64,000 nt of DNA. Origin: Alphaproteobacteria bacterium (GTDB lineage Bacteria > Pseudomonadota > Alphaproteobacteria > UBA828). Location of the stretch: NCBI GenBank assembly GCA_963422645.2, contig CAXXVO010000008.1:64001-128000 (forward strand), written 5' to 3'. Of this stretch, positions 2,040 to 64,000 are shown piece after piece; position 1 is the first letter of the stretch, and the number at the start of each line of letters is the position of its first letter. Below the pieces are notes generated by a model. That model did no database searches. It worked only from the letters and a program-made list of their open reading frames with translations, and was not told the DNA's origin. The position numbers were made by a program, and so were the translations under genes.

Positions 2040-3632
<1,593 letters not shown>

Positions 3633-3642
3633 GGCGCGCGGC

Positions 3643-3775
3643 CCAGAGCGTTTCCATCTTCGACTGAAACGCTCTGGCTATTTGTCGCTCACGGCAGCCG
3701 GCCGGCGCCTGCGCGGGCGCGCCGCAATAGCGGCGGGCCGCGGTCGCGGCCCGCCGCGCGTCCGTCAATGTCGGA
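3643..3775. repeat. Palindromic REP/RIME-like intergenic element between convergent dctM and bioA
   Basis: CCAGAGCGTTTC...GAAACGCTCTGG stem (3643-3677) and GCGGCGGGCCGCG-GT-CGCGGCCCGCCGC stem. Confidence 0.5.
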
Positions 3776-3781
3776 CGCGCT

Positions 3782-5077
3782 CTAACGCTCCCGCGACCAG
3801 GCGGTCACGACGTCGATCAGCGCGTCCGTAAGCCGGGCGAGGTCGCCTTCGTCGATGGTGAGAGCGGGCGTGACGTAGACGATATCGGCGAAGGGGCGGA
3901 CCCAGACGCCGGAGTCCACGAAGCGCTGCTTGAGCCAGTCGATGCGGCTCATGTCGTCGAGCTGGATGACGCCGATCGCGCCCCGCACCCGCACATCGAC
4001 CACACCGGGCAGTCCCCGCGCGGGCGCCAACGCGGCGGCGAGATGGCTCTCGATGGCGCGCACCTGGGCGAGGCGGGGCTCGCTCTCGAAGAGATCGAGA
4101 GAGGCGTTGGCGGCGGCGCAGGCCAGGGGATTGGCCATGAAGGTCGGCCCGTGCATGAGCGCCGCGTCAGGATCGTCCGACAGGAAGGCCTCGAAGACCC
4201 TCTCGCTCGCCACGGTCGCAGCCAGCGCCATGGTGCCGCCGGTGAGCGCCTTGGAAAGCGTGACGATATCCGGCACCACCCCCGCTTGCTCGCAGGCGAA
4301 GAGCGTGCCGGTGCGGCCGAACCCGGTCATGATCTCGTCGGCAATCAGCAACAGGCCGTGCCTGTCGCAGGCTACGCGCAGCGTGCGCAGCACCTCCGGC
4401 GCGTGGAAGCGCATGCCGCCCGCGCCCTGGACCAGCGGCTCGACGATGACCGCCGCCACGTCCCCCCCATTGCGGGCGAGGTAAGCGTCGAAGGTTGCGA
4501 TGCCCGCCTCGTCCCCAGGCAATGGCACGACGTGCTGCTCCGGCAGCGCGCCGGCGAAGAGGCTGTGCATGCCCTCCTCGGGATCGCATACCGACATGGC
4601 GGCGAAGGTGTCGCCGTGATAGGCGCCCTGGAAGCTCACGAAGCGGTGGCGCCCGCGAACCCCCTGGTTGAGCCAGTACTGCAGCGCCATCTTGAGCGCG
4701 ATCTCCACCGCGACCGAGCCTGACTCCGAGAAGAACACCCGGCTGAGTGGATCGGGAAGCATGCCGGCCAAGCGGCGGGCCAGCCGGAGCGCGGGCTCGT
4801 TGGCGAGGCCGCCGAACATGACGTGGGGCATGCGCTCCAGCTGCTCGGCCACGGCGGCGCGGATGTGGGGATGGTTGTAGCCGTGGCAGGCGGTCCACCA
4901 CGACGCGATGCCGTCGATCAGCTCGCGGCCATCGGCGAGGACGATGCGTGTGCCCCTGGTCGCAGCCACGGGCAGCGGCGGCGGCACGCTCGCCATCTGG
5001 GTATAGGGCAGCCAGACGTGGCCGTAGCCCTCGGCCAGCCAGTCGGGCGCTTGCGGCGCGGAGGAGTCGGCAGGCAT
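3782..5077 (-). CDS. bioA: Adenosylmethionine-8-amino-7-oxononanoate aminotransferase
   Basis: VWLPYTQM, DGIASWW, SGSVAVEIALKMA, YHGDT, ADEIMTGFGRTG, SKALTGG, HGPTFMANPL; next to bioB. Confidence 0.95.
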   Translation of the reverse strand: MPADSSAPQAPDWLAEGYGHVWLPYTQMASVPPPLPVAATRGTRIVLADGRELIDGIASWWTACHGYNHPHIRAAVAEQLERMPHVMFGGLANEPALRLARRLAGMLPDPLSRVFFSESGSVAVEIALKMALQYWLNQGVRGRHRFVSFQGAYHGDTFAAMSVCDPEEGMHSLFAGALPEQHVVPLPGDEAGIATFDAYLARNGGDVAAVIVEPLVQGAGGMRFHAPEVLRTLRVACDRHGLLLIADEIMTGFGRTGTLFACEQAGVVPDIVTLSKALTGGTMALAATVASERVFEAFLSDDPDAALMHGPTFMANPLACAAANASLDLFESEPRLAQVRAIESHLAAALAPARGLPGVVDVRVRGAIGVIQLDDMSRIDWLKQRFVDSGVWVRPFADIVYVTPALTIDEGDLARLTDALIDVVTAWSRER

Positions 5078-5119
5078 GCGGCGCGCCGCGGCGTGCGCTG
5101 GGAGCGCCGCCTTCGCGCC

Positions 5120-6115
5120 CTAAGCCGGCATCGGCGCGATGCCGAGGCGGGCGAAGAGCTGGGTGTCGCGTTCGCGCCCGGGGTTGGGCGTCGTGAGCAG
5201 CTCAGGCCCGACGAACACCGAGTTGGCGCCGGCGAGGAAGGCCAGAGCCTGCATCTCGTCCGACATCTGCTCGCGCCCGGCCGAAAGCCGGACCACCGAG
5301 CCCGGCATGGTGATCCGCGCCACCGCCACCGTGCGCACGAACTCGAAGGGATCTAGCGCGTCCATGCCGTTGAGCGGCGTGCCCTCCACCTGCACCAGCA
5401 TGTTGATGGGCACGCTCTCGGGATGGCTCGGCAGGCTCGCGAGCGTCGCGATCATGTCCGCGCGGTCGCGGCGCGATTCGCCCATGCCGACGATGCCGCC
5501 GCAGCAGACGTTGATACCCGCGTCCCGCACATGGCCCAGGGTCTCGAGCCGGTCCTGGTACGTGCGCGTGGTGATGATCTCGCCGTAGAACGATTCGGAG
5601 GTGTCTAGATTGTGGTTGTAGTAGTCGAGGCCGGCATCGGCGAGGCGTTCAGCCTGGGGCTCGCTCAGCATGCCGAGGGTGACGCAGGTCTCCATGCCGA
5701 GCGCCTTGACGCCCGCGACCATCTCGGCCACCGCCTCCAGATCGCGGTCCTTGGGGCTGCGCCAGGCGGCGCCCATGCAGTAGCGGGTGGCGCCGGCTTC
5801 GCGGGCGCGCCGGGCCTCGGCCAGCACCTCGTCGCGGGACATCAGCTTGCCCGCTTCGAGCCCGGTGTCGTAGCGCGCGCTCTGCGGGCAATAGGCGCAG
5901 TCCTCCGGGCAGCCGCCGGTCTTGATGCTGAGCAGCGTCGACATCTGCACCTGGTTCGGGTCGAAGTGGCGGCGATGCGCGGTCTGCGCGCGGAACATCA
6001 GCTCGGCGAAGGGCAGCGCGAGCAATGCCTCGACCTCCGCCGCCGACCAGTCATGCCTGAGCGCGGGCGCAACACTCGGCGGCGCGTCCGCGCCGATCGC
6101 CTCGACAGTTTCCAT
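5120..6115 (-). CDS. bioB: Biotin synthase
   Basis: Radical SAM motif [11 protein letters not shown], plus YNHNLDT, CCGGIVG, ESVPIN and RLSAGR. Confidence 0.97.
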
Positions 6116-6145
6116 GATCGCTCGTCTCCGGCTCTCGCCCGGCGC

Positions 6146-6173
6146 AGGATAGGCCCGCCCGCCGCCGGGTCAA
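6146..6173 (-). promoter_or_regulatory. Putative sigma70 promoter of bioBA
   Basis: TTGACC-N16-TATCCT on the minus strand ~30 bp upstream of bioB. Confidence 0.4.
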
Positions 6174-6250
6174 GGAATCCGGCAGGGATATCGAAGCCGT
6201 GTCTTGAGCACGCGCGGGGCGCCGCGTCGAGCGTCCCGCCTCACATCTGT

Positions 6251-30309: not shown

Positions 30310-32198
30310 GTAACTGCCCAGGTCGTCTGATTTGTCATTTTGGGCCAGTGGATTGAGGCGTTTCTCGTTCGGAGTTGGTGGAAAGGGCTTGACGGGAATT
30401 TCGGGAAATGACTCAACAACGACATGAGCAATCCCGAGTCGCCGCGCGGCCCTTCGACGGGAGCAGCGCCCGAAACGCCCGCGCAGAAGATCGCCCGCCT
30501 GGAGGAGGAGAACGCCCGGCTTCGGGAGGAAAATGCCTGGCTTCGGCAGCAGAACGCGCGGCTGGAAGAGCAAGTCGCGCGTCTCGTCGAGCGCATCGAG
30601 GAGTTGGAGCGCCGTCTCGGCCTCAACAGCGGCAACAGCGTCAAGCCGCCTTCGAGCGATGGGCTGAGGAAGCCGAATTCGAAGCGGCGAACCCGAAGCC
30701 TGCGCGGCAAATCGGGCCGCAAGCCCGGTGGCCAGCCCGGCCACAAGGGCAAGACGCTGCGCCGCGCCGATCACCCGGATCGGGTGAAGGATCACGTCCC
30801 GGCTTCCTGCAAGGGATGCGGTTCGCCGCTTTCGGACGCGGCCAGGGCGGGAACGCCCGTCGCCCGCCAGGTGTTCGATCTGCCCGAGCCGAGCCCCCTG
30901 GAGGTGACCGAGCACCGGGCGCATGCCAAGTGCTGCGGGCATTGCGGGACGGTGACCCGGGCGGCGTTCCCCGACGGGGTGTCGGCGCCGGTGCAGTACG
31001 GCCCGCGCATTGCCGGGGTGGCGGTCTACCTTCAGCACGCTCACTTCCTGCCGGAGGATCGGCTGTCGCAGGTGATGGCCGAGCTCTTCGGCGCGCCGGT
31101 GACGGCTGCGACGTTGGCGACGATGAGCGAGAGGGCGGCCGAGCGGCTTGCGGGACGCGGCCTTGCACATACAGGACCTGGCGGCGGGCACGGCGCGGGT
31201 GAAACACATGGACGAGACCGGCTTGCGGATCGGCGGTCAGACGCAGTGGCTTCATGTGATCTGCACGCCGCTGCTGGCGGCGTACCGGGTCAGCGGCAAG
31301 CGCGGCGCCCTGCTCTCGGGTGTCTCCGGCATCGTCGTGCACGATCACTGGAAGCCGTACTTCGCGATGGAAGGGGTGGAGCACGGCCTGTGCAACGCCC
31401 ATCACCTGCGGGAGTTGCAGGCGCTGGTGGACATCGAAGGGGAGGCTTGGGCCCGGCGGATGCAGCAGCTCCTGCGCCGAGCCAATCGCGCCGCCCGCAT
31501 CGCGCTGGACAAGGATATCGCCGTTCCGGCGAGGCTTGTGGCGCTGATCGAGCGCCGATACGACGAGGTCATCGCCGATGCGCTGGCCTTTCACGAGAGC
31601 CAACCACCGTTCTCGCCTGGCAAGAGGAAGAAGCGCCGGAAGCGAAGGATCGGTCACAATCTGGCCTTGAGGCTGCGCGACCACAAATGCGCGGTGCTCC
31701 GGTTCCTGATCGACCTCGAGGTCGGGTTCACGAACAACGAGGCCGAGCGCGACCTTCGGATGATGAAGCTGCGCCAGAAGATCTCCGGGGGCTTCCGGTC
31801 CGCGCAGGGGGCCGAGAACTTCGCCATCCTGCGCAGCGTCATCACCACCGCCAGAAAGCAGGGCTGGAATATCATCGAAGCCCTGACCAGCCCATCGGAT
31901 CGGCTCATCGCCACCGTCAAGTGCGCGTAAGCTCACCTGGCACGGGTTCTCCAACAGCGGAGCCATTCTCATAAACGATCATGGTCGACGCCGTGCTGGA
32001 CCACCCCATAGAATGAAAATCGGTGCCCGTCGCGCGGGCGGACTTCGGGCCACATCGGGGTAGCTTACCGGTCGCAGTCCGCAAGAGGGGCATCGTGAGC
32101 TGTGAAACCCGGCGACCACAGAGGAGCACACGGGCGTCGCGTGGGTAGCGTTGTGCCGAATCCCAGAGAATTTTCACAGCAAGAACCTGGGCAGTTAC
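30310..32198 (+). mobile_element. IS66-family (ISBst12-like) element, copy 1 (1889 bp)
   Basis: TIRs GTAACTGCCCAGG / CCTGGGCAGTTAC; 8-bp TSD GAGTTTTC at 30302-30309 and 32199-32206. Confidence 0.95.
30424..31930 (+). pseudogene. IS66 transposase with +1 frameshift near 31147
   Basis: Coiled coil, KPPSSD and Cys zinc motifs in one frame; HMDETG, CNAHHLR and TNNEAERDLR in the +1 frame. Confidence 0.85.
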
Positions 32199-32544: not shown

Positions 32545-34433
32545 GTAACTGCCCAGGTCGTCTGATTTGTCATTTTGGGCCAGTGGATTGAGGCGTTTCT
32601 CGTTCGGAGTTGGTGGAAAGGGCTTGACGGGAATTTCGGGAAATGACTCAACAACGACATGAGCAATCCCGAGTCGCCGCGCGGCCCTTCGACGGGAGCA
32701 GCGCCCGAAACGCCCGCGCAGAAGATCGCCCGCCTGGAGGAGGAGAACGCCCGGCTTCGGGAGGAAAATGCCTGGCTTCGGCAGCAGAACGCGCGGCTGG
32801 AAGAGCAAGTCGCGCGTCTCGTCGAGCGCATCGAGGAGTTGGAGCGCCGTCTCGGCCTCAACAGCGGCAACAGCGGCAAGCCGCCTTCGAGCGATGGGCT
32901 GAGGAAGCCGAATTCGAAGCGGCGAACCCGAAGCCTGCGCGGCAAATCGGGCCGCAAGCCCGGTGGCCAGCCCGGCCACAAGGGCAAGACGCTGCGCCGC
33001 GCCGATCACCCGGATCGGGTGAAGGATCACGTCCCGGCTTCCTGCAAGGGATGCGGTTCGCCGCTTTCGGACGCGGCCAGGGCGGGAACGCCCGTCGCCC
33101 GCCAGGTGTTCGATCTGCCCGAGCCGAGCCCCCTGGAGGTGACCGAGCACCGGGCGCATGCCAAGTGCTGCGGGCATTGCGGGACGGTGACCCGGGCGGC
33201 GTTCCCCGACGGGGTGTCGGCGCCGGTGCAGTACGGCCCGCGCATTGCCGGGGTGGCGGTCTACCTTCAGCACGCTCACTTCCTGCCGGAGGATCGGCTG
33301 TCGCAGGTGATGGCCGAGCTCTTCGGCGCGCCGGTGACGGCTGCGACGTTGGCGACGATGAGCGAGAGGGCGGCCGAGCGGCTTGCGGGACGCGGCCTTG
33401 CACATACAGGACCTGGCGGCGGGCACGGCGCGGGTGAAACACATGGACGAGACCGGCTTGCGGATCGGCGGTCAGACGCAGTGGCTTCATGTGATCTGCA
33501 CGCCGCTGCTGGCGGCGTACCGGGTCAGCGGCAAGCGCGGCGCCCTGCTCTCGGGTGTCTCCGGCATCGTCGTGCACGATCACTGGAAGCCGTACTTCGC
33601 GATGGAAGGGGTGGAGCACGGCCTGTGCAACGCCCATCACCTGCGGGAGTTGCAGGCGCTGGTGGACATCGAAGGGGAGGCTTGGGCCCGGCGGATGCAG
33701 CAGCTCCTGCGCCGAGCCAATCGCGCCGCCCGCATCGCGCTGGACAAGGATATCGCCGTTCCGGCGAGGCTTGTGGCGCTGATCGAGCGCCGATACGACG
33801 AGATCATCGCCGATGCGCTGGCCTTTCACGAGAGCCAACCACCGTTCTCGCCTGGCAAGAGGAAGAAGCGCCGGAAGCGAAGGATCGGTCACAATCTGGC
33901 CTTGAGGCTGCGCGACCACAAATGCGCGGTGCTCCGGTTCCTGATCGACCTCGAGGTCGGGTTCACGAACAACGAGGCCGAGCGCGACCTTCGGATGATG
34001 AAGCTGCGCCAGAAGATCTCCGGGGGCTTCCGGTCCGCGCAGGGGGCCGAGAACTTCGCCATCCTGCGCAGCGTCATCACCACCGCCAGAAAGCAGGGCT
34101 GGAATATCATCGAAGCCCTGACCAGCCCATCGGATCGGCTCATCGCCACCGTCAAGTGCGCGTAAGCTCACCTGGCACGGGTTCTCCAACAGCGGAGCCA
34201 TTCTCATAAACGATCATGGTCGACGCCGTGCTGGACCACCCCATAGAATGAAAATCGGTGCCCGTCGCGCGGGCGGACTTCGGGCCACATCGGGGTAGCT
34301 TACCGGTCGCAGTCCGCAAGAGGGGCATCGTGAGCTGTGAAACCCGGCGACCCCAGAGGAGCACACGGGCGTCGCGTGGGTAGCGTTGTGCCGAATCCCA
34401 GAGAATTTTCACAGCAAGAACCTGGGCAGTTAC
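32545..34433 (+). mobile_element. IS66-family element, copy 2 (1889 bp)
   Basis: Same TIRs; TSD CTTTTGGG at 32537-32544 and 34434-34441; lies in the dadA/ridA intergenic region. Confidence 0.95.
32659..34165 (+). pseudogene. IS66 transposase with the same +1 frameshift (near 33382)
   Basis: Split ORFs equivalent to copy 1. Confidence 0.85.
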
Positions 34434-55459: not shown

Positions 55460-57339
55460 GTAACTGCCCAGGTCGTCTGATTTGTCATTTTGGGCCAGTG
55501 GATTGAGGCGTTTCTCGTTCGGAGTTGGTGGAAAGGGCTTGACGGGAATTTCGGGAAATGACTCAACAACGACATGAGCAATCCCGAGTCGCCGCGCGGC
55601 CCTTCGACGGGAGCAGCGCCCGAAACGCCCGCGCAGAAGATCGCCCGCCTGGAGGAGGAGAACGCCCGGCTTCGGGAGGAAAATGCCTGGCTTCGGCAGC
55701 AGAACGCGCGGCTGGAAGAGCAAGTCGCGCGTCTCGTCGAGCGCATCGAGGAGTTGGAGCGCCGTCTCGGCCTCAACAGCGGCAAGCCGCCTTCGAGCGA
55801 TGGGCTGAGGAAGCCGAATTCGAAGCGGCGAACCCGAAGCCTGCGCGGCAAATCGGGCCGCAAGCCCGGTGGCCAGCCCGGCCACAAGGGCAAGACGCTG
55901 CGCCGCGCCGATCACCCGGATCGGGTGAAGGATCACGTCCCGGCTTCCTGCAAGGGATGCGGTTCGCCGCTTTCGGACGCGGCCAGGGCGGGAACGCCCG
56001 TCGCCCGCCAGGTGTTCGATCTGCCCGAGCCGAGCCCCCTGGAGGTGACCGAGCACCGGGCGCATGCCAAGTGCTGCGGGCATTGCGGGACGGTGACCCG
56101 GGCGGCGTTCCCCGACGGGGTGTCGGCGCCGGTGCAGTACGGCCCGCGCATTGCCGGGGTGGCGGTCTACCTTCAGCACGCTCACTTCCTGCCGGAGGAT
56201 CGGCTGTCGCAGGTGATGGCCGAGCTCTTCGGCGCGCCGGTGACGGCTGCGACGTTGGCGACGATGAGCGAGAGGGCGGCCGAGCGGCTTGCGGGACGCG
56301 GCCTTGCACATACAGGACCTGGCGGCGGGCACGGCGCGGGTGAAACACATGGACGAGACCGGCTTGCGGATCGGCGGTCAGACGCAGTGGCTTCATGTGA
56401 TCTGCACGCCGCTGCTGGCGGCGTACCGGGTCAGCGGCAAGCGCGGCGCCCTGCTCTCGGGTGTCTCCGGCATCGTCGTGCACGATCACTGGAAGCCGTA
56501 CTTCGCGATGGAAGGGGTGGAGCACGGCCTGTGCAACGCCCATCACCTGCGGGAGTTGCAGGCGCTGGTGGACATCGAAGGGGAGGCTTGGGCCCGGCGG
56601 ATGCAGCAGCTCCTGCGCCGAGCCAATCGCGCCGCCCGCATCGCGCTGGACAAGGATATCGCCGTTCCGGCGAGGCTTGTGGCGCTGATCGAGCGCCGAT
56701 ACGACGAGATCATCGCCGATGCGCTGGCCTTTCACGAGAGCCAACCACCGTTCTCGCCTGGCAAGAGGAAGAAGCGCCGGAAGCGAAGGATCGGTCACAA
56801 TCTGGCCTTGAGGCTGCGCGACCACAAATGCGCGGTGCTCCGGTTCCTGATCGACCTCGAGGTCGGGTTCACGAACAACGAGGCCGAGCGCGACCTTCGG
56901 ATGATGAAGCTGCGCCAGAAGATCTCCGGGGGCTTCCGGTCCGCGCAGGGGGCCGAGAACTTCGCCATCCTGCGCAGCGTCATCACCACCGCCAGAAAGC
57001 AGGGCTGGAATATCATCGAAGCCCTGACCAGCCCATCGGATCGGCTCATCGCCACCGTCAAGTGCGCGTAAGCTCACCTGGCACGGGTTCTCCAACAGCG
57101 GAGCCATTCTCATAAACGATCATGGTCGACGCCGTGCTGGACCACCCCATAGAATGAAAATCGGTGCCCGTCGCGCGGGCGGACTTCGGGCCACATCGGG
57201 GTAGCTTACCGGTCGCAGTCCGCAAGAGGGGCATCGTGAGCTGTGAAACCCGGCGACCCCAGAGGAGCACACGGGCGTCGCGTGGGTAGCGTTGTGCCGA
57301 ATCCCAGAGAATTTTCACAGCAAGAACCTGGGCAGTTAC
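55460..57339 (+). mobile_element. IS66-family element, copy 3 (1880 bp; 9-bp in-frame deletion)
   Basis: Same TIRs; TSD GAAAATTG at 55452-55459 and 57340-57347. Confidence 0.95.
55574..57071 (+). pseudogene. IS66 transposase with the same +1 frameshift (near 56288)
   Basis: Split ORFs equivalent to copies 1 and 2. Confidence 0.85.
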
Positions 57340-60469: not shown

Positions 60470-61630
60470 TCAGTGGCGCAATTGCCGAGACAGTGGGACG
60501 CCGGCGAGCGTCGACACCAGCCGCACCAGCTCCACCTGCCGGGAGATACCGTGCTTGACGAATATTTTCTGCGTGTGCCACCGGATCGTGCTTTCCCTGC
60601 GTCCCGTTGCAGCTGCGATTTCTCGGGGTGTCCTGCCCTCGGCCAGCATCGCGGCAACCTGGCTTTCCGCAGGCGTAAGATCCAGGGTGGCCATCACGAG
60701 TTCCGGATCGATGCGAGCCTGGATGGCAGGATCCACGATTAGTGCGACCGCAGCGACGTTTCGGGGGCGGAAGTCCATCTCTCCGTCGCCCACGGGGCTC
60801 ACGTGAAGAACGAGTCGCGGCAAGACGGATCGACGCTTCACCAACATCGAAGCGCTCGCACCCTGGCCACCGCCCTGCGGCAGGACTCGTGCCAACAGCC
60901 TCTGCAGATCGTCGGCGGCGGCTGGAGAGCGGGCGTGGAGGAAGCCGCCCCGGTCGAACAACCCATCGCCCTTGCTCAGCAGGTCTCGAGCGGGGTCGTT
61001 GATGGCCACGATTCGTCCGCGTCGGGCCAGTTGGATTACGCCGAATCTGGTGTTGTCGAGCAGCCTGTCGAGGGAGGAGCCCGCGGCCCCCGCATCGGCC
61101 AGCGCCTGGCGGACACGAACGAATTGGCGAATGTGGGGCAATAGACGCCTGATCATGTCGAGCTGATCGGACGACCAGCCGTCAGGGGCGACGGGATCGC
61201 AAATCGACCAGACGATGCGCGAGCCACTCGGCCCATCCAGTCGCACGTCTATTCCGTTCTGACTGCTGCCGAGGGGCAGCGCCTCGTTGTATGCGGCCGA
61301 GGTCTTCCGCTCCCGTTCCGTGTAGAGGTCGGGTACGTGAAAGAGCTTGCTGTCAGGCAGTTTCCTGACGCGCGGTACGCGCTCGTCCCGCGGAAAATAG
61401 TTTTTGAAGTAGTGGCGCTCCAATTCCCTATTGAGTTCCCCGTAAAAGCAAAACCTCTTGTAGTAGATCTCGAAATCGTCCTCAGTACTGCCCTCGGCAA
61501 ACGTCAAGAAATTGCCCTTCGTCCGGCAGAAAGCGTCGATCAGGGCGAAGGTTGGTAACCAGTGGGCATCGTCGAGCATGGCCTCGTGCAGCGATGCCAG
61601 AATGCGATCGAACGCGTCTTGTTTGCTCAT
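60470..61630 (-). CDS. LuxR-type HTH transcriptional regulator with PAS-like domain
   Basis: ATG 61630; LTPAESQVAAMLAEG..PREIA...ESTIRWH..IFVKHGISRQVEL. Confidence 0.85.
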   Translation of the reverse strand: MSKQDAFDRILASLHEAMLDDAHWLPTFALIDAFCRTKGNFLTFAEGSTEDDFEIYYKRFCFYGELNRELERHYFKNYFPRDERVPRVRKLPDSKLFHVPDLYTERERKTSAAYNEALPLGSSQNGIDVRLDGPSGSRIVWSICDPVAPDGWSSDQLDMIRRLLPHIRQFVRVRQALADAGAAGSSLDRLLDNTRFGVIQLARRGRIVAINDPARDLLSKGDGLFDRGGFLHARSPAAADDLQRLLARVLPQGGGQGASASMLVKRRSVLPRLVLHVSPVGDGEMDFRPRNVAAVALIVDPAIQARIDPELVMATLDLTPAESQVAAMLAEGRTPREIAAATGRRESTIRWHTQKIFVKHGISRQVELVRLVSTLAGVPLSRQLRH

Positions 61631-61978
61631 GATGAGCTTGCGACCCTCGTTGTCCCGGTTGCCCCTTGGGCCCAGATCCTCGCTCAGTGACCTCACGCAA
61701 GGCCCTTTGGCGGGACTCAAGAGTCGGTTCTGGCCAGCCGCGCCGGACCTCCATGACAACGGGGCGGCCAGACAGCCAACATTCGCCGCGAAGACGAGCC
61801 CCACCGGGTGGTCCGCTCCGAATAGTAGTTAAACCACAGGCGTAATGCCATATCTGAGATAAGCAATATGTAGTAACTACCCAGGTACCCCGCCGCCAGT
61901 TCTGAGTGCGTGCTGATGTTGCTTGCCGTCGGTGCCGTTTCGCCGTCGGCGCGTCGTTGATCCCCGCTTGACTGTATA

Positions 61979-62128
61979 GTCTACGACATCGACGGGGCCT
62001 CGGAATCCGCGCGGCTCGTGTCACCTAAAATCAGCAGAGGTCAGGAAGTCTGAGTCTACGACATCGACGGGGCCTCGGAATCCGCGCGGCTCGTGTCACC
62101 TAAAATCAGCAGAGGTCAGGAAGTCTGA
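61979..62128 (+). repeat. Two exact tandem 75-bp units, each identical to 1167-1241
   Basis: GTCTACGACATCG...GGTCAGGAAGTCTGA at 61979-62053 and 62054-62128. Confidence 0.97.
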
Positions 62129-62174
62129 GGTTCTCTCGCCTATGGGTTGCACTCTCGCATGAGAGGAGCAGCCG

Positions 62175-62843
62175 GTGGGGTATTTCGGGTCGAAGGCGAC
62201 GACCGGTCTGAGCCAGGCGCTGATTGCGCTGATGCCGCGGCACTCTGTCTATATCGAGAGCCATCTTGGGGGCGGGGCGCTGATGAAGCGCAAGCCTGCG
62301 GCCATGCGCTCGATCGGGATCGACCGCGACGAGCGGGCGCTTGAGGCCTTTGGCTGCGACTACCCGGTGGAGTTGGTGCCCGGCTGCGCCCATTCCTTCC
62401 TGGCCTCGTTCCCGTTTCTGGGCCCGGAGCTGGTCTACAGCGATCCGCCCTATCTGCACGCGACCCGGCGTTCGTCGCAGCGCTACCGCTTCGAGTACGA
62501 GGAGGCCGACCACGTCGCGCTCCTCGAACTGCTCAAGGGTCTGCCCTGCCAGGTGATGGTCTCGGGCCACCCGTCTGCGCTCTATGACGAGCTGCTGGCG
62601 GGCTGGCGCCGGCTGGCGCTGCAGGTGACGACCCAGGCCCAGGTGCGGACCGAGGTCGTGTGGTTCAACTTCGTGCCTGACCGGGTGCACTGGGCGAGCT
62701 TCGCCGGCCGGAACTTCACCGAGCGCCAGTGCATCAAGCGCAAGGCGGCCAACTGGGGCCGGCGCTACGAGGCCATGCCGGCGGGCGAACGCCTGGCGGT
62801 GCTGGCCGCGATCATGGCCGTCGAGGCCGACGAGGGTTCGTGA
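62175..62843 (+). CDS. Small D12/Dam-like (alpha-class) DNA adenine methyltransferase
   Basis: RBS GAGAGGAG; YFGSK, YIESHLGGGA (SAM binding), YSDPPY (catalytic), EVVWFNF. Confidence 0.85.
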   Translation: MGYFGSKATTGLSQALIALMPRHSVYIESHLGGGALMKRKPAAMRSIGIDRDERALEAFGCDYPVELVPGCAHSFLASFPFLGPELVYSDPPYLHATRRSSQRYRFEYEEADHVALLELLKGLPCQVMVSGHPSALYDELLAGWRRLALQVTTQAQVRTEVVWFNFVPDRVHWASFAGRNFTERQCIKRKAANWGRRYEAMPAGERLAVLAAIMAVEADEGS

Positions 62844-64000
62844 CAGTGTCGCGCTGGCACGAGGACCTCGCTGCCCACGACGAGGCCTTCGCGTGCCTGC
62901 AGGACCTTTTCACCCCACAATCCTTCGCAATGACCGCCGTCAAAGCCATTCGGGAATGGGGCCAGGGGTTGCTGCGCCTGAGCGCGGCCCTGGTCAAGGA
63001 GAACGACGCGCTGGAGCGGGAGAACGCCCGCTTGCGCGAGCGGATCGCCGAACTCGAGCGCAGCGCCGCGCTCGACAGCACCACCAGCTCCAAGCCGCCG
63101 GCCAGCGACGGTCTGAAGAAGAAGAGCGGTGACCGGGAGAAGCGCACCCGGAGCCAGCGCGGCAAGTCCGACAGGCCCAGTGGCGGCCAGCCGGGCCACA
63201 AGGGAACTACCCTGGAGCGGACCGCGACGCCCGACCATGTCGTCGATCATGATCCGTCCGCCTGTGAGGGCTGCGGCGCGCCGCTGTCGGACGCTGACCG
63301 TCACGGAGCCCCCGTCTGCCGGCAGGTCTTCGATGTGCCCGAGCCGCAGCCCCTCGAGGTCACCGAACATCGCGGCCATCGTTGCCTCTGCGCTGCCTGC
63401 GGCACCGTGACGACAGCCGTCTTCCCGAACGGCGTGAGCGCACCGGTCCAATACGGGCCGCGCATCACCGCGTGGGTGACCTACCTGCTGCACGCTCAGT
63501 TCATTCCCGAGAAGCGGGTCGCCGAGGTCATGAGCGACCTCTTCGCGGTCAAGCTCTCAACAGCCACCATCGTCGCCATGGGAAGGCGCACCGCCCGGCG
63601 CTTCGAGGGCTTCCTCGATCGCCTCGCGGAGATCATCCGCACCGCAGCCCCAGTCAAACACCTCGACGAGACCGGCATCCGCATCGCCGCCCGGACCCAT
63701 TGGCTCCATGTGCTGTGCACCCCGTTGCTCACCATCCTGCGCGTCGCCACCGGGCGCAGCCACATCGACGAGAAGCTCAACGGCATCGTCATCCATGACG
63801 ACTACGCCACCTACTTCGCTCTCGAGGGCGTGCGCCACGGGGCCTGCAACGCCCATCACCTGCGCGAGCTCCAAGCCCTCATCGAGATCGAGAAGGAAGA
63901 CTGGGCAACGAGCACGCACCGGCTCCTCATCCGTGCCAACAGAGCCGCCCGCTTCGCCCACAAGAACGACCGCGACGTGCCCGCCTCACTGGTGGCCCGC
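62840..64000 (+). CDS. IS66 transposase, unbroken as far as visible, 3' part outside the window
   Basis: GTG overlaps the MTase stop (GTGA). A single frame carries SSKPPASDG, C..C motifs, KHLDETG and CNAHHLRELQAL. Absent from the ORF track because it runs off the edge. Confidence 0.88.
   Translation, partial: MTVSRWHEDLAAHDEAFACLQDLFTPQSFAMTAVKAIREWGQGLLRLSAALVKENDALERENARLRERIAELERSAALDSTTSSKPPASDGLKKKSGDREKRTRSQRGKSDRPSGGQPGHKGTTLERTATPDHVVDHDPSACEGCGAPLSDADRHGAPVCRQVFDVPEPQPLEVTEHRGHRCLCAACGTVTTAVFPNGVSAPVQYGPRITAWVTYLLHAQFIPEKRVAEVMSDLFAVKLSTATIVAMGRRTARRFEGFLDRLAEIIRTAAPVKHLDETGIRIAARTHWLHVLCTPLLTILRVATGRSHIDEKLNGIVIHDDYATYFALEGVRHGACNAHHLRELQALIEIEKEDWATSTHRLLIRANRAARFAHKNDRDVPASLVAR

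Follow-up and report, generated by a model that had tools for sequence, protein, structure and literature searches.

Insertion sequences (IS) are usually thought to encode only what they need for movement. Dam methylation controls the promoters and ends of IS10/Tn10 and IS50/Tn5, and to our knowledge methylation control of transposition, as in IS10 and IS50, is known only through the Dam enzyme of the host. In the IS66 family, there is a subgroup with a single transposase gene and without tnpA and tnpB, which we take to be the ISBst12 group of ISfinder. In the present study, we analysed a stretch of 64,000 nucleotides (the window; C9:64001-128000) from an alphaproteobacterial genome of 5.9 Mb (23 contigs, 67% G+C). 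The right end of the window is occupied by an IS66-family insertion sequence on the forward strand (61873-64000, cut by the window end), and upstream of its transposase gene this element carries a gene for a Dam-like adenine methyltransferase without a target-recognition domain (hereafter the methylase). In the literature searched, nothing was found that describes a methylase among the accessory genes of IS66; ISfinder, subscription journals and supplements lay outside this search, and in PMC9296519, IS66 appears in a count table only. New here is an architecture of IS66 (and IS701) elements that includes a cassette with a minimal methylase derived from Dam.

At this locus stands a complete IS66-family insertion sequence with a single transposase gene, which has been active recently. 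The earlier note on this DNA, made from the letters of the window, had placed an IS66-type left end at 61873 and predicted an 8-bp target duplication at 61865-61872, and both were confirmed when the genome contig was read past the window. The left terminal inverted repeat, GTAACTACCCAGGT (14 bp, 61873-61886, forward strand), is matched at 13/14 positions by the right one, which ends 483 bp beyond the window end, at window-equivalent position 64483 (C9:128483), and reads ...ACCTGGGCAGTTAC, or GTAACTGCCCAGGT on the other strand. The octamer AATATGTA flanks the element on both sides, its exact repeat after the right end standing at 64484-64491, outside the window. There was no closer left end that would exclude the methylase gene, since the best end-motif matches within 61887-64000 carry 3 mismatches. 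The inverted ends enclose the methylase gene, which is mobilised together with them, perfect 8-bp duplications being found around 32/48 exact full-length copies in the genome. The whole window element measures 2611 bp (C9:125873-128483), that is, a typical 2461-bp copy plus a 150-bp scar, and it differs from the 12 other exact 2461-bp copies at 1-5 positions.

The transposase gene (62840-64000 and on to window-equivalent 64381, forward strand) encodes an IS66-family DDE transposase of 513 aa with DUF6444, zf-IS66 and DDE_Tnp_IS66 domains. The full protein matches PF03050 at 3e-38, and the part inside the window scores 186.1 bits with NF033517 against a cut-off of 180. Thus, an IS66-type DDE transposase, inverted ends and an 8-bp duplication, the marks of IS66 membership, are all found. 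The 2461-bp element has only the methylase and the transposase open reading frames (ORFs), with neither tnpA nor tnpB and no room for either; it is therefore a member of the IS66 family outside the canonical three-gene group (IS66, IS679). Like the single-transposase subgroup, it has the DDE_Tnp_IS66 and zf-IS66 domains, an 8-bp duplication and ends starting with GTAA, and lacks tnpA/tnpB. Unlike that subgroup, it has a cassette of promoter and methylase that precedes the transposase gene and overlaps it, and its transposase has an N-terminal DUF6444.

The methylase gene (62175-62843, forward strand) has a GTG start, 222 codons for amino acids and a TGA stop at 62841-62843, which overlaps the GTG of the transposase (62840) in the sequence GTGA, as had been noted earlier. 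A Shine-Dalgarno-like GAGAGGAG (62161-62168) can be read 6 nt 5' of the methylase start. The protein has the S-adenosylmethionine (SAM)-binding motif I, HLGGGAL (residues 30-36; 62262-62282), and the catalytic motif IV, DPPY (residues 90-93; 62442-62453). In an alignment of 47 methylase sequences that reaches down to about 40% identity, G5, H23, G32, D90, P91, P92, H113, G178 and R184 are invariant, and K7, E28, G34 and Y93 nearly so. The hairpin at the C-terminus is likewise conserved and basic, R184 being invariant and R189 and E205 nearly so. The invariance of the SAM-binding and DPPY motifs down to 40% identity argues that catalysis has been retained.

The relation of the methylase to Dam was examined through profile and structure comparison. 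With the alignment profile, DpnM was found at 3.3e-11 and E. coli Dam at 4e-6. The matches fall into two blocks, positions 2-61 of the profile corresponding to DpnM 16-75 and positions 71-158 to DpnM 177-267, with about 100 DpnM residues left without counterpart. The AlphaFold model (predicted local distance difference test score 92.4) has an uninterrupted Rossmann core (1-167), with consecutive strands and no inserted domain, followed by two long helices (181-221). By VIA-align, this model was closest to E. coli Dam (Z 17.9, root-mean-square deviation 2.2, 147 residues), T4 Dam (Z 17.7) and DpnM (Z 17.1); for these three Dam-type enzymes 147-155 residues were aligned with deviations of 2.1-3.1, generic methyltransferases gave Z of about 13-14, and all matches were confined to model residues 1-170, leaving the C-terminal hairpin outside. 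The earlier proposal of an adenine methylase without a target-recognition domain therefore stood, about 100 residues being absent from a Dam-like core, while its spacing of about 45 residues had to be corrected to about 55 between GGG (32-34) and DPPY (90-93). This correction leaves the proposal untouched, as the interval is about 100 residues longer in Dam and DpnM. A homodimer prediction with two copies of the methylase (alignment A1) gave scores of 0.25, 0.31 and 0.25 against a mark of 0.42, which is no verdict either way.

Compared with the Dam or D12 class (E. coli Dam, T4 Dam, DpnM), the window protein has the same motif order, with an N-terminal Y-x-G-x-K, the FxGxG-like HLGGG and DPPY, and its Rossmann core superposes on theirs at Z 17-18. 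It differs in having no target-recognition domain of about 100 residues between motif II and DPPY, in adding a conserved two-helix hairpin at the C-terminus and in scoring under the thresholds of Pfam and TIGRFAM. Of the aligned relatives, 42/47 matched PF02086 (the D12 methyltransferase family) at E <= 0.01. The family is large: one search returned 2776 proteins at E <= 0.001 (the best 120 of the 2776 being listed), and a library clustered at 50% identity gave 5898 cluster representatives at E <= 0.001, 458 of them at E <= 1e-30. Among methylases carried by mobile elements, Hia5/Hin1523 and M.EcoGII are the nearest for comparison. These are prophage-carried orphan enzymes of relaxed specificity (PMC3299994, PMC5778455); Hia5, a non-specific enzyme of the alpha class with 281 aa, retains a divergent recognition region at residues ~80-170 (PMC3299994), and M.EcoGII belongs to the beta class with a reversed motif order (PMC5778455). 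Neither is linked to a transposase, unlike the window methylase.

In the genome, the left-end motif has 100 occurrences, which fall into two subfamilies with 82% nucleotide identity between them, A (the window type, 2461 bp) and B (2507-2511 bp). Their insertion targets are A+T-rich and the genome is G+C-rich. Among the exact full-length copies, the methylase ORF is intact in 48/48 and both ORFs in 46/48, and the GTGA overlap is kept in both subfamilies. Between A and B, the methylase has a ratio of nonsynonymous to synonymous substitution (dN/dS) of 0.215 and the transposase one of 0.247, with synonymous divergence (dS) of 0.316 and 0.623, respectively. As judged by these comparisons, the methylase ORF is under purifying selection.

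Relatives of the methylase were surveyed in genome records and in metagenomes. Among the 80 loci returned from genome records, 65 have an IS66 transposase that is >=74% identical to that of the window and starts within ~140 bp downstream, and six (L083, L087, L088, L090, L091, L092) have a downstream IS66 transposase only 27-30% identical to it. The remaining nine are without IS66 match. In six of these (L077, L078, L082, L084-L086; three genome records), the methylase precedes an IS701-family transposase (DDE_5; NF049999 at 4.5e-92), the element being 2.78 kb long (positions 3446-6226 of each locus) with inverted ends of its own, GCTCGACTTTGTACA, and 4-bp TNAG duplications; two (L079, L081) are solo cassettes, and the partner in L089 is unassigned. 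In the metagenome survey, made with a narrower alignment (A2), 80 contig loci were returned, of which 65 have an IS66 transposase directly downstream, six are too short and nine do not match the references. These nine include one divergent IS66 transposase, one DDE_5 transposase and one that resembles this DDE_5 protein at its N-terminus by eye. Altogether, 66/74 informative metagenome loci are IS66-linked with the methylase directly upstream of the transposase, and the expectation that homologues of the methylase would be located with IS66 was overwhelmingly supported.

Conservation is much stronger in the methylase than in its partner transposases. The methylase is 62-84% identical between lineages whose IS66 transposases share 22-31%; between L087 and L088 the values are 84% for the methylase and 22% for the transposase, and between the window and L087 they are 70% and 30%. 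Furthermore, at the nucleotide level the window-type and IS701 elements are homologous only over element positions 118-839, a segment that runs from the -10 region to a point 18 nt downstream of the methylase stop codon. By this comparison of sequences, the 5' part of the element is a portable methylase cassette made up of a promoter, a short 5' untranslated region and the 222-aa methylase. The presence of such a cassette before unrelated transposases suggests that the elements may set their own methyl mark. The distribution is patchy, full-length methylase matches being found in 3/401 genomes sampled across the phylum, own genome included; in another 12/401 the matches cover only the core of ordinary Dam-like genes. 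In the other two of the three genomes with full-length matches, the methylase is about 43% identical (judged from the alignment range) and its gene overlaps the next one downstream, which encodes an Ogg-HhH glycosylase domain; this pair may form a restriction-like or repair module; no match to PADLOC defence models was obtained among the neighbouring proteins tested.

Some additional observations were made at these loci. The pairs with the Ogg-HhH gene lie at 1426-2948 in L094 (G337:C22) and 719-2295 in L095 (G127:C56), and adjoin a conserved 235-aa protein with no family match. In the IS701 element, there are ~550 bp from the left end to the methylase start, with a 176-aa antisense ORF that has a weak DUF3024 match and may be spurious. 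A link to an IS630-type transposase in L079, a label given by motifs recognised in the translation with no family search, did not hold: with another copy from that record (L081), 826 bp are shared, which is the cassette alone, and the IS630-like gene is therefore a mere neighbour. The IS91-type gene 1.6 kb downstream in L089 was not counted as linked.

The cassette has a conserved promoter. TTGAC is found within 110 nt upstream of the methylase in 99/101 distinct upstream sequences, and alignment on it gives the consensus CTTGACA-N-CATAG-N10-CTATGcT, which reads as a near-consensus sigma-70-type promoter, with a putative -35 element TTGACA, a 17-nt spacer and a -10 element TATGCT. TTGAC-N3-ATAG-N10-CTAT is matched by 73/98 sequences, the 10-nt spacing is kept in 91/98 and the inverted repeat is perfect in 52/98; the ATAG within the spacer equals the -35 and -10 hexamers in conservation. 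Conservation of the promoter extends over records labelled Alphaproteobacteria, Planctomycetota, Bacillota, Dehalococcoidia, Binatia and Uhrbacteria. In the window copy, the -35 element is TTGACT (61968-61973), separated by the 150-bp scar from the -10 element TATGGG (62141-62146), which lies within the CTATG half-site of the CATAG-N10-CTATG inverted repeat (both on the forward strand). A simple promoter and terminator scan of 61700-63000 found nothing, the window promoter being split and TATGGG falling below the rule of the tool. In addition, RNA-library contigs from two runs bridge the junction of methylase and transposase, which is a weak hint of co-transcription.

The leader in front of the methylase had been regarded as a native part of the element and as a possible guide RNA. 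The former view did not hold, as the leader has 302 bp in the window and 152 bp in typical copies, the extra 2 x 75 bp being debris of another IS. The latter was weakened, because except for the promoter the leader is unconserved between the subfamilies, half of the window leader is foreign debris, and no Rfam family was matched in the leader when 61500-64000 was scanned at E <= 1, a chance microRNA match being the sole result.

The genome also contains 64 methylase-less siblings with the same 14-bp ends (GTAACTGCCCAGGT), 46 of which have perfect 8-bp duplications. Three of these 1.88-kb IS66-family elements lie in the window, at 30310-32198, 32545-34433 and 55460-57339, the transposase of the first being split over two frames. 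A transposase of 501 aa is encoded by 33/64 siblings, and in one such copy it is 58% identical to that of the window element. Neither the methylase nor the ATAG/CTATG promoter was present in the sibling copy examined. These siblings argue against an essential role of the methylase in the chemistry of transposition.

On this basis, we tentatively prefer a reading with a chance a little below even, in which the element is under a self-encoded epigenetic control of its expression, comparable to that of IS10 by Dam. The cassette promoter would drive one transcript of methylase and transposase, and the methylase, presumably active and of relaxed or very short specificity, would methylate adenines of its own promoter, in the CTATG half-sites including that of the -10 element, and probably elsewhere too. 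Full methylation would silence a copy, with a brief rise in expression following replication or entry into a naive cell. The conserved promoter and its inverted repeat give this regulatory reading a concrete form. The proposed logic is alike in IS10 and IS50, where methylation of promoter adenines quiets the element unless the DNA is hemimethylated or unmethylated; those elements depend on the Dam of the host and on GATC sites, whereas the window element would use its own methylase, which travels with the promoter, and here the methylation is only predicted.

Several points weigh against this self-control. About 100 copies of a methylase with relaxed specificity might be expected to harm the cell. 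The window methylase has no Pfam match at E <= 0.01 and reaches 27 bits with TIGR00571 (dam), below the curated cut-off of 114.85, and the lower dS of the methylase fits a recent exchange of cassettes as well as functional constraint. The centres of the half-sites are 15 bp apart, an unusual geometry for a dimeric binder. No CTATG or CATAG was seen by eye near the ends of the element, so that an IS10-like control at the ends is not indicated. RNA-library contigs can contain DNA; they are no proof of a single transcript and cannot show where transcripts start. Finally, the 64 methylase-less siblings have proliferated in the same genome, which means that the methylase is not needed in cis for this type of IS66 to multiply; it might act in trans.

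Other explanations of the cassette have to be weighed against self-control. The methylase might be an anti-restriction escort, which, driven by a broad-host promoter, would be expressed at once in a new host, protect the DNA that carries it by relaxed methylation and aid the spread between distant hosts. An enzyme without a target-recognition domain suggests low specificity, and the near-consensus promoter in records of six bacterial groups together with the patchy distribution (3/401 sampled genomes) agrees with such a role, which has been proposed for non-specific phage methylases that counter restriction (PMC5778455 and PMC3299994). We regard the escort as unlikely, because methylation must precede restriction and one small gene on a large incoming replicon would be a slow protector, and because the tight, often overlapping linkage to the transposase and the inverted repeat in the promoter would be left unexplained; moreover, known non-specific methylases of the alpha class such as Hia5 retain a divergent recognition region (PMC3299994). 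The inverted repeat, which lies across the spacer and the -10 element and is found only together with the methylase gene, would find its explanation if the protein were an exapted regulator, no longer chiefly a methylase, that binds CATAG-N10-CTATG through its C-terminal hairpin, possibly by holding a flipped-out adenine in its DPPY pocket, and represses the promoter shared by its own gene and the transposase. The hairpin is conserved, basic and outside the Dam-aligned part of the model, as this would require, but relatives only 40% identical would hardly keep invariant SAM-binding and DPPY motifs for repression, and the 15-bp spacing of half-site centres is again unusual for a dimer; we consider an exapted regulator to be quite unlikely.

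The earlier note had also considered that the methylase is targeted by the transposase, so that the end-bound transposase would recruit it to mark the ends or the intermediates of transposition. Translational coupling provides co-production of both proteins, the enzyme has no recognition domain of its own, and the ~43% identical relatives are likewise coupled to another protein, the Ogg-HhH glycosylase-like one. This proposal was weakened by the survey, where the methylase stays 62-84% identical beside IS66 transposases that are 22-31% identical, beside IS701 or in solo cassettes. Specific contacts would be expected to co-vary with the partner, and such conservation next to divergent or unrelated transposases argues against specific recruitment; as the methylase-less siblings transpose with the same ends, we believe that a partner-targeted methylase is very improbable. 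In a further alternative, the gene would be a passenger, hitch-hiking or useful to the host, which merely lends a strong promoter to the downstream transposase. The equal success of the methylase-less siblings (64 copies, 46 with duplications) and the modular cassette, which also occurs alone, are in line with this; the position directly upstream of an IS66 transposase in 66/74 informative metagenome loci and an ORF that is intact in 48/48 exact full-length copies and apparently under purifying selection are not, and we give a mere passenger very little credence as well. Beyond self-control of this one element, a wider proposal can be made, that the cassette is a self-contained, portable epigenetic timer in which hairpin-guided CTATG methylation restricts the co-translated transposase to DNA just replicated or just arrived, that it has been captured repeatedly by several deep IS66 lineages and by IS701, and that the glycosylase-coupled relatives use the methylase as the 'self' mark of a restriction-like system. 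In this extended form, the proposal is speculative and rather unlikely.

If an element is indeed governed or shielded by its own minimal adenine methylase and promoter, transposons would have a new way of regulating or protecting themselves. As a natural, minimal Dam core, the enzyme would also help in studying how adenines are located by a methylase that has no recognition domain. With about 100 copies and 64 methylase-less siblings, the genome has a built-in comparison for such work.

The window copy is an ordinary member of its subfamily whose promoter has been knocked apart by another IS. In typical copies, the promoter reads CTTGACTGTATAGGTTCTCTCGCCTATGGG; in the window copy, two exact tandem 75-bp units (61978-62129, forward strand, with the flanking AG ambiguous) stand between TTGACTGTAT and AGGTTC and shift the -35 element by 150 bp from the -10 element. 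Because of this separation, the promoter circuit is probably broken in the window copy. Each unit is the terminal 75 bp of a 2.51-kb IS of the Transposase_29 type, which has ends CAGACTTCCTGACCTC and 5-bp duplications, and whose transposase matches PF21804 (Transposase_29) across two reading frames. This second IS is present in the genome in at least 67 full-length copies, with 118 matches to the 75-bp unit, and prefers targets of the form (A)(T)|A-G-N-Y-T, AGGTT being the commonest (9/40).

The promoter of subfamily A offers this AGGTT. Among 36 left ends of A type, the promoter is intact in 20 and interrupted in 16, nine times by the second IS in one orientation, five times in the other, once by a related IS and once by the scar of the window, with hits at the same AGGTT. 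None of the 59 promoters of B type, which read ATAGAGTT, is interrupted. One IS has thus repeatedly disrupted the promoter of another; since some of the interruptions may go back to the copying of a single nested structure, our claim is limited to a minimum of two independent hits, one per orientation. Another target of the second IS is AGTCT in its own right end, at a distance of 75 bp from the tip, and this self-insertion accounts for the tandem 75-bp units. The window scar is best read as a nested pair that was later deleted between ATAG repeats, a deletion step that we infer. Arrays of two or three exact 75-bp units occur elsewhere in the genome, at C8:179330-179554, C9:638277-638426 and C22:107749-107898.

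A few minor observations were made in addition. A contig (X16) that skips the whole element (from 1375 to 3857 of L010, with 13 other letters between) was a candidate for an empty site in a relative, and with a 44-letter side and 80% likeness it was too weak to be used. Matching duplications are missing in 16/48 exact full-length copies of the methylase-bearing IS and in 18/64 methylase-less copies, and there are left flanks that match right flanks at other loci (GGCGTTTC, GAAATGAC and CTTAAAAC are examples). Such pairing across loci suggests IS-mediated rearrangements or assembly joins at repeats. Beside the insertion in the window, a gene on the reverse strand (60470-61804) encodes a 444-aa protein whose C-terminus, judged by eye, has a LuxR-type helix-turn-helix. 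The IS lies ~70 bp upstream of the start of this gene and may affect its promoter.

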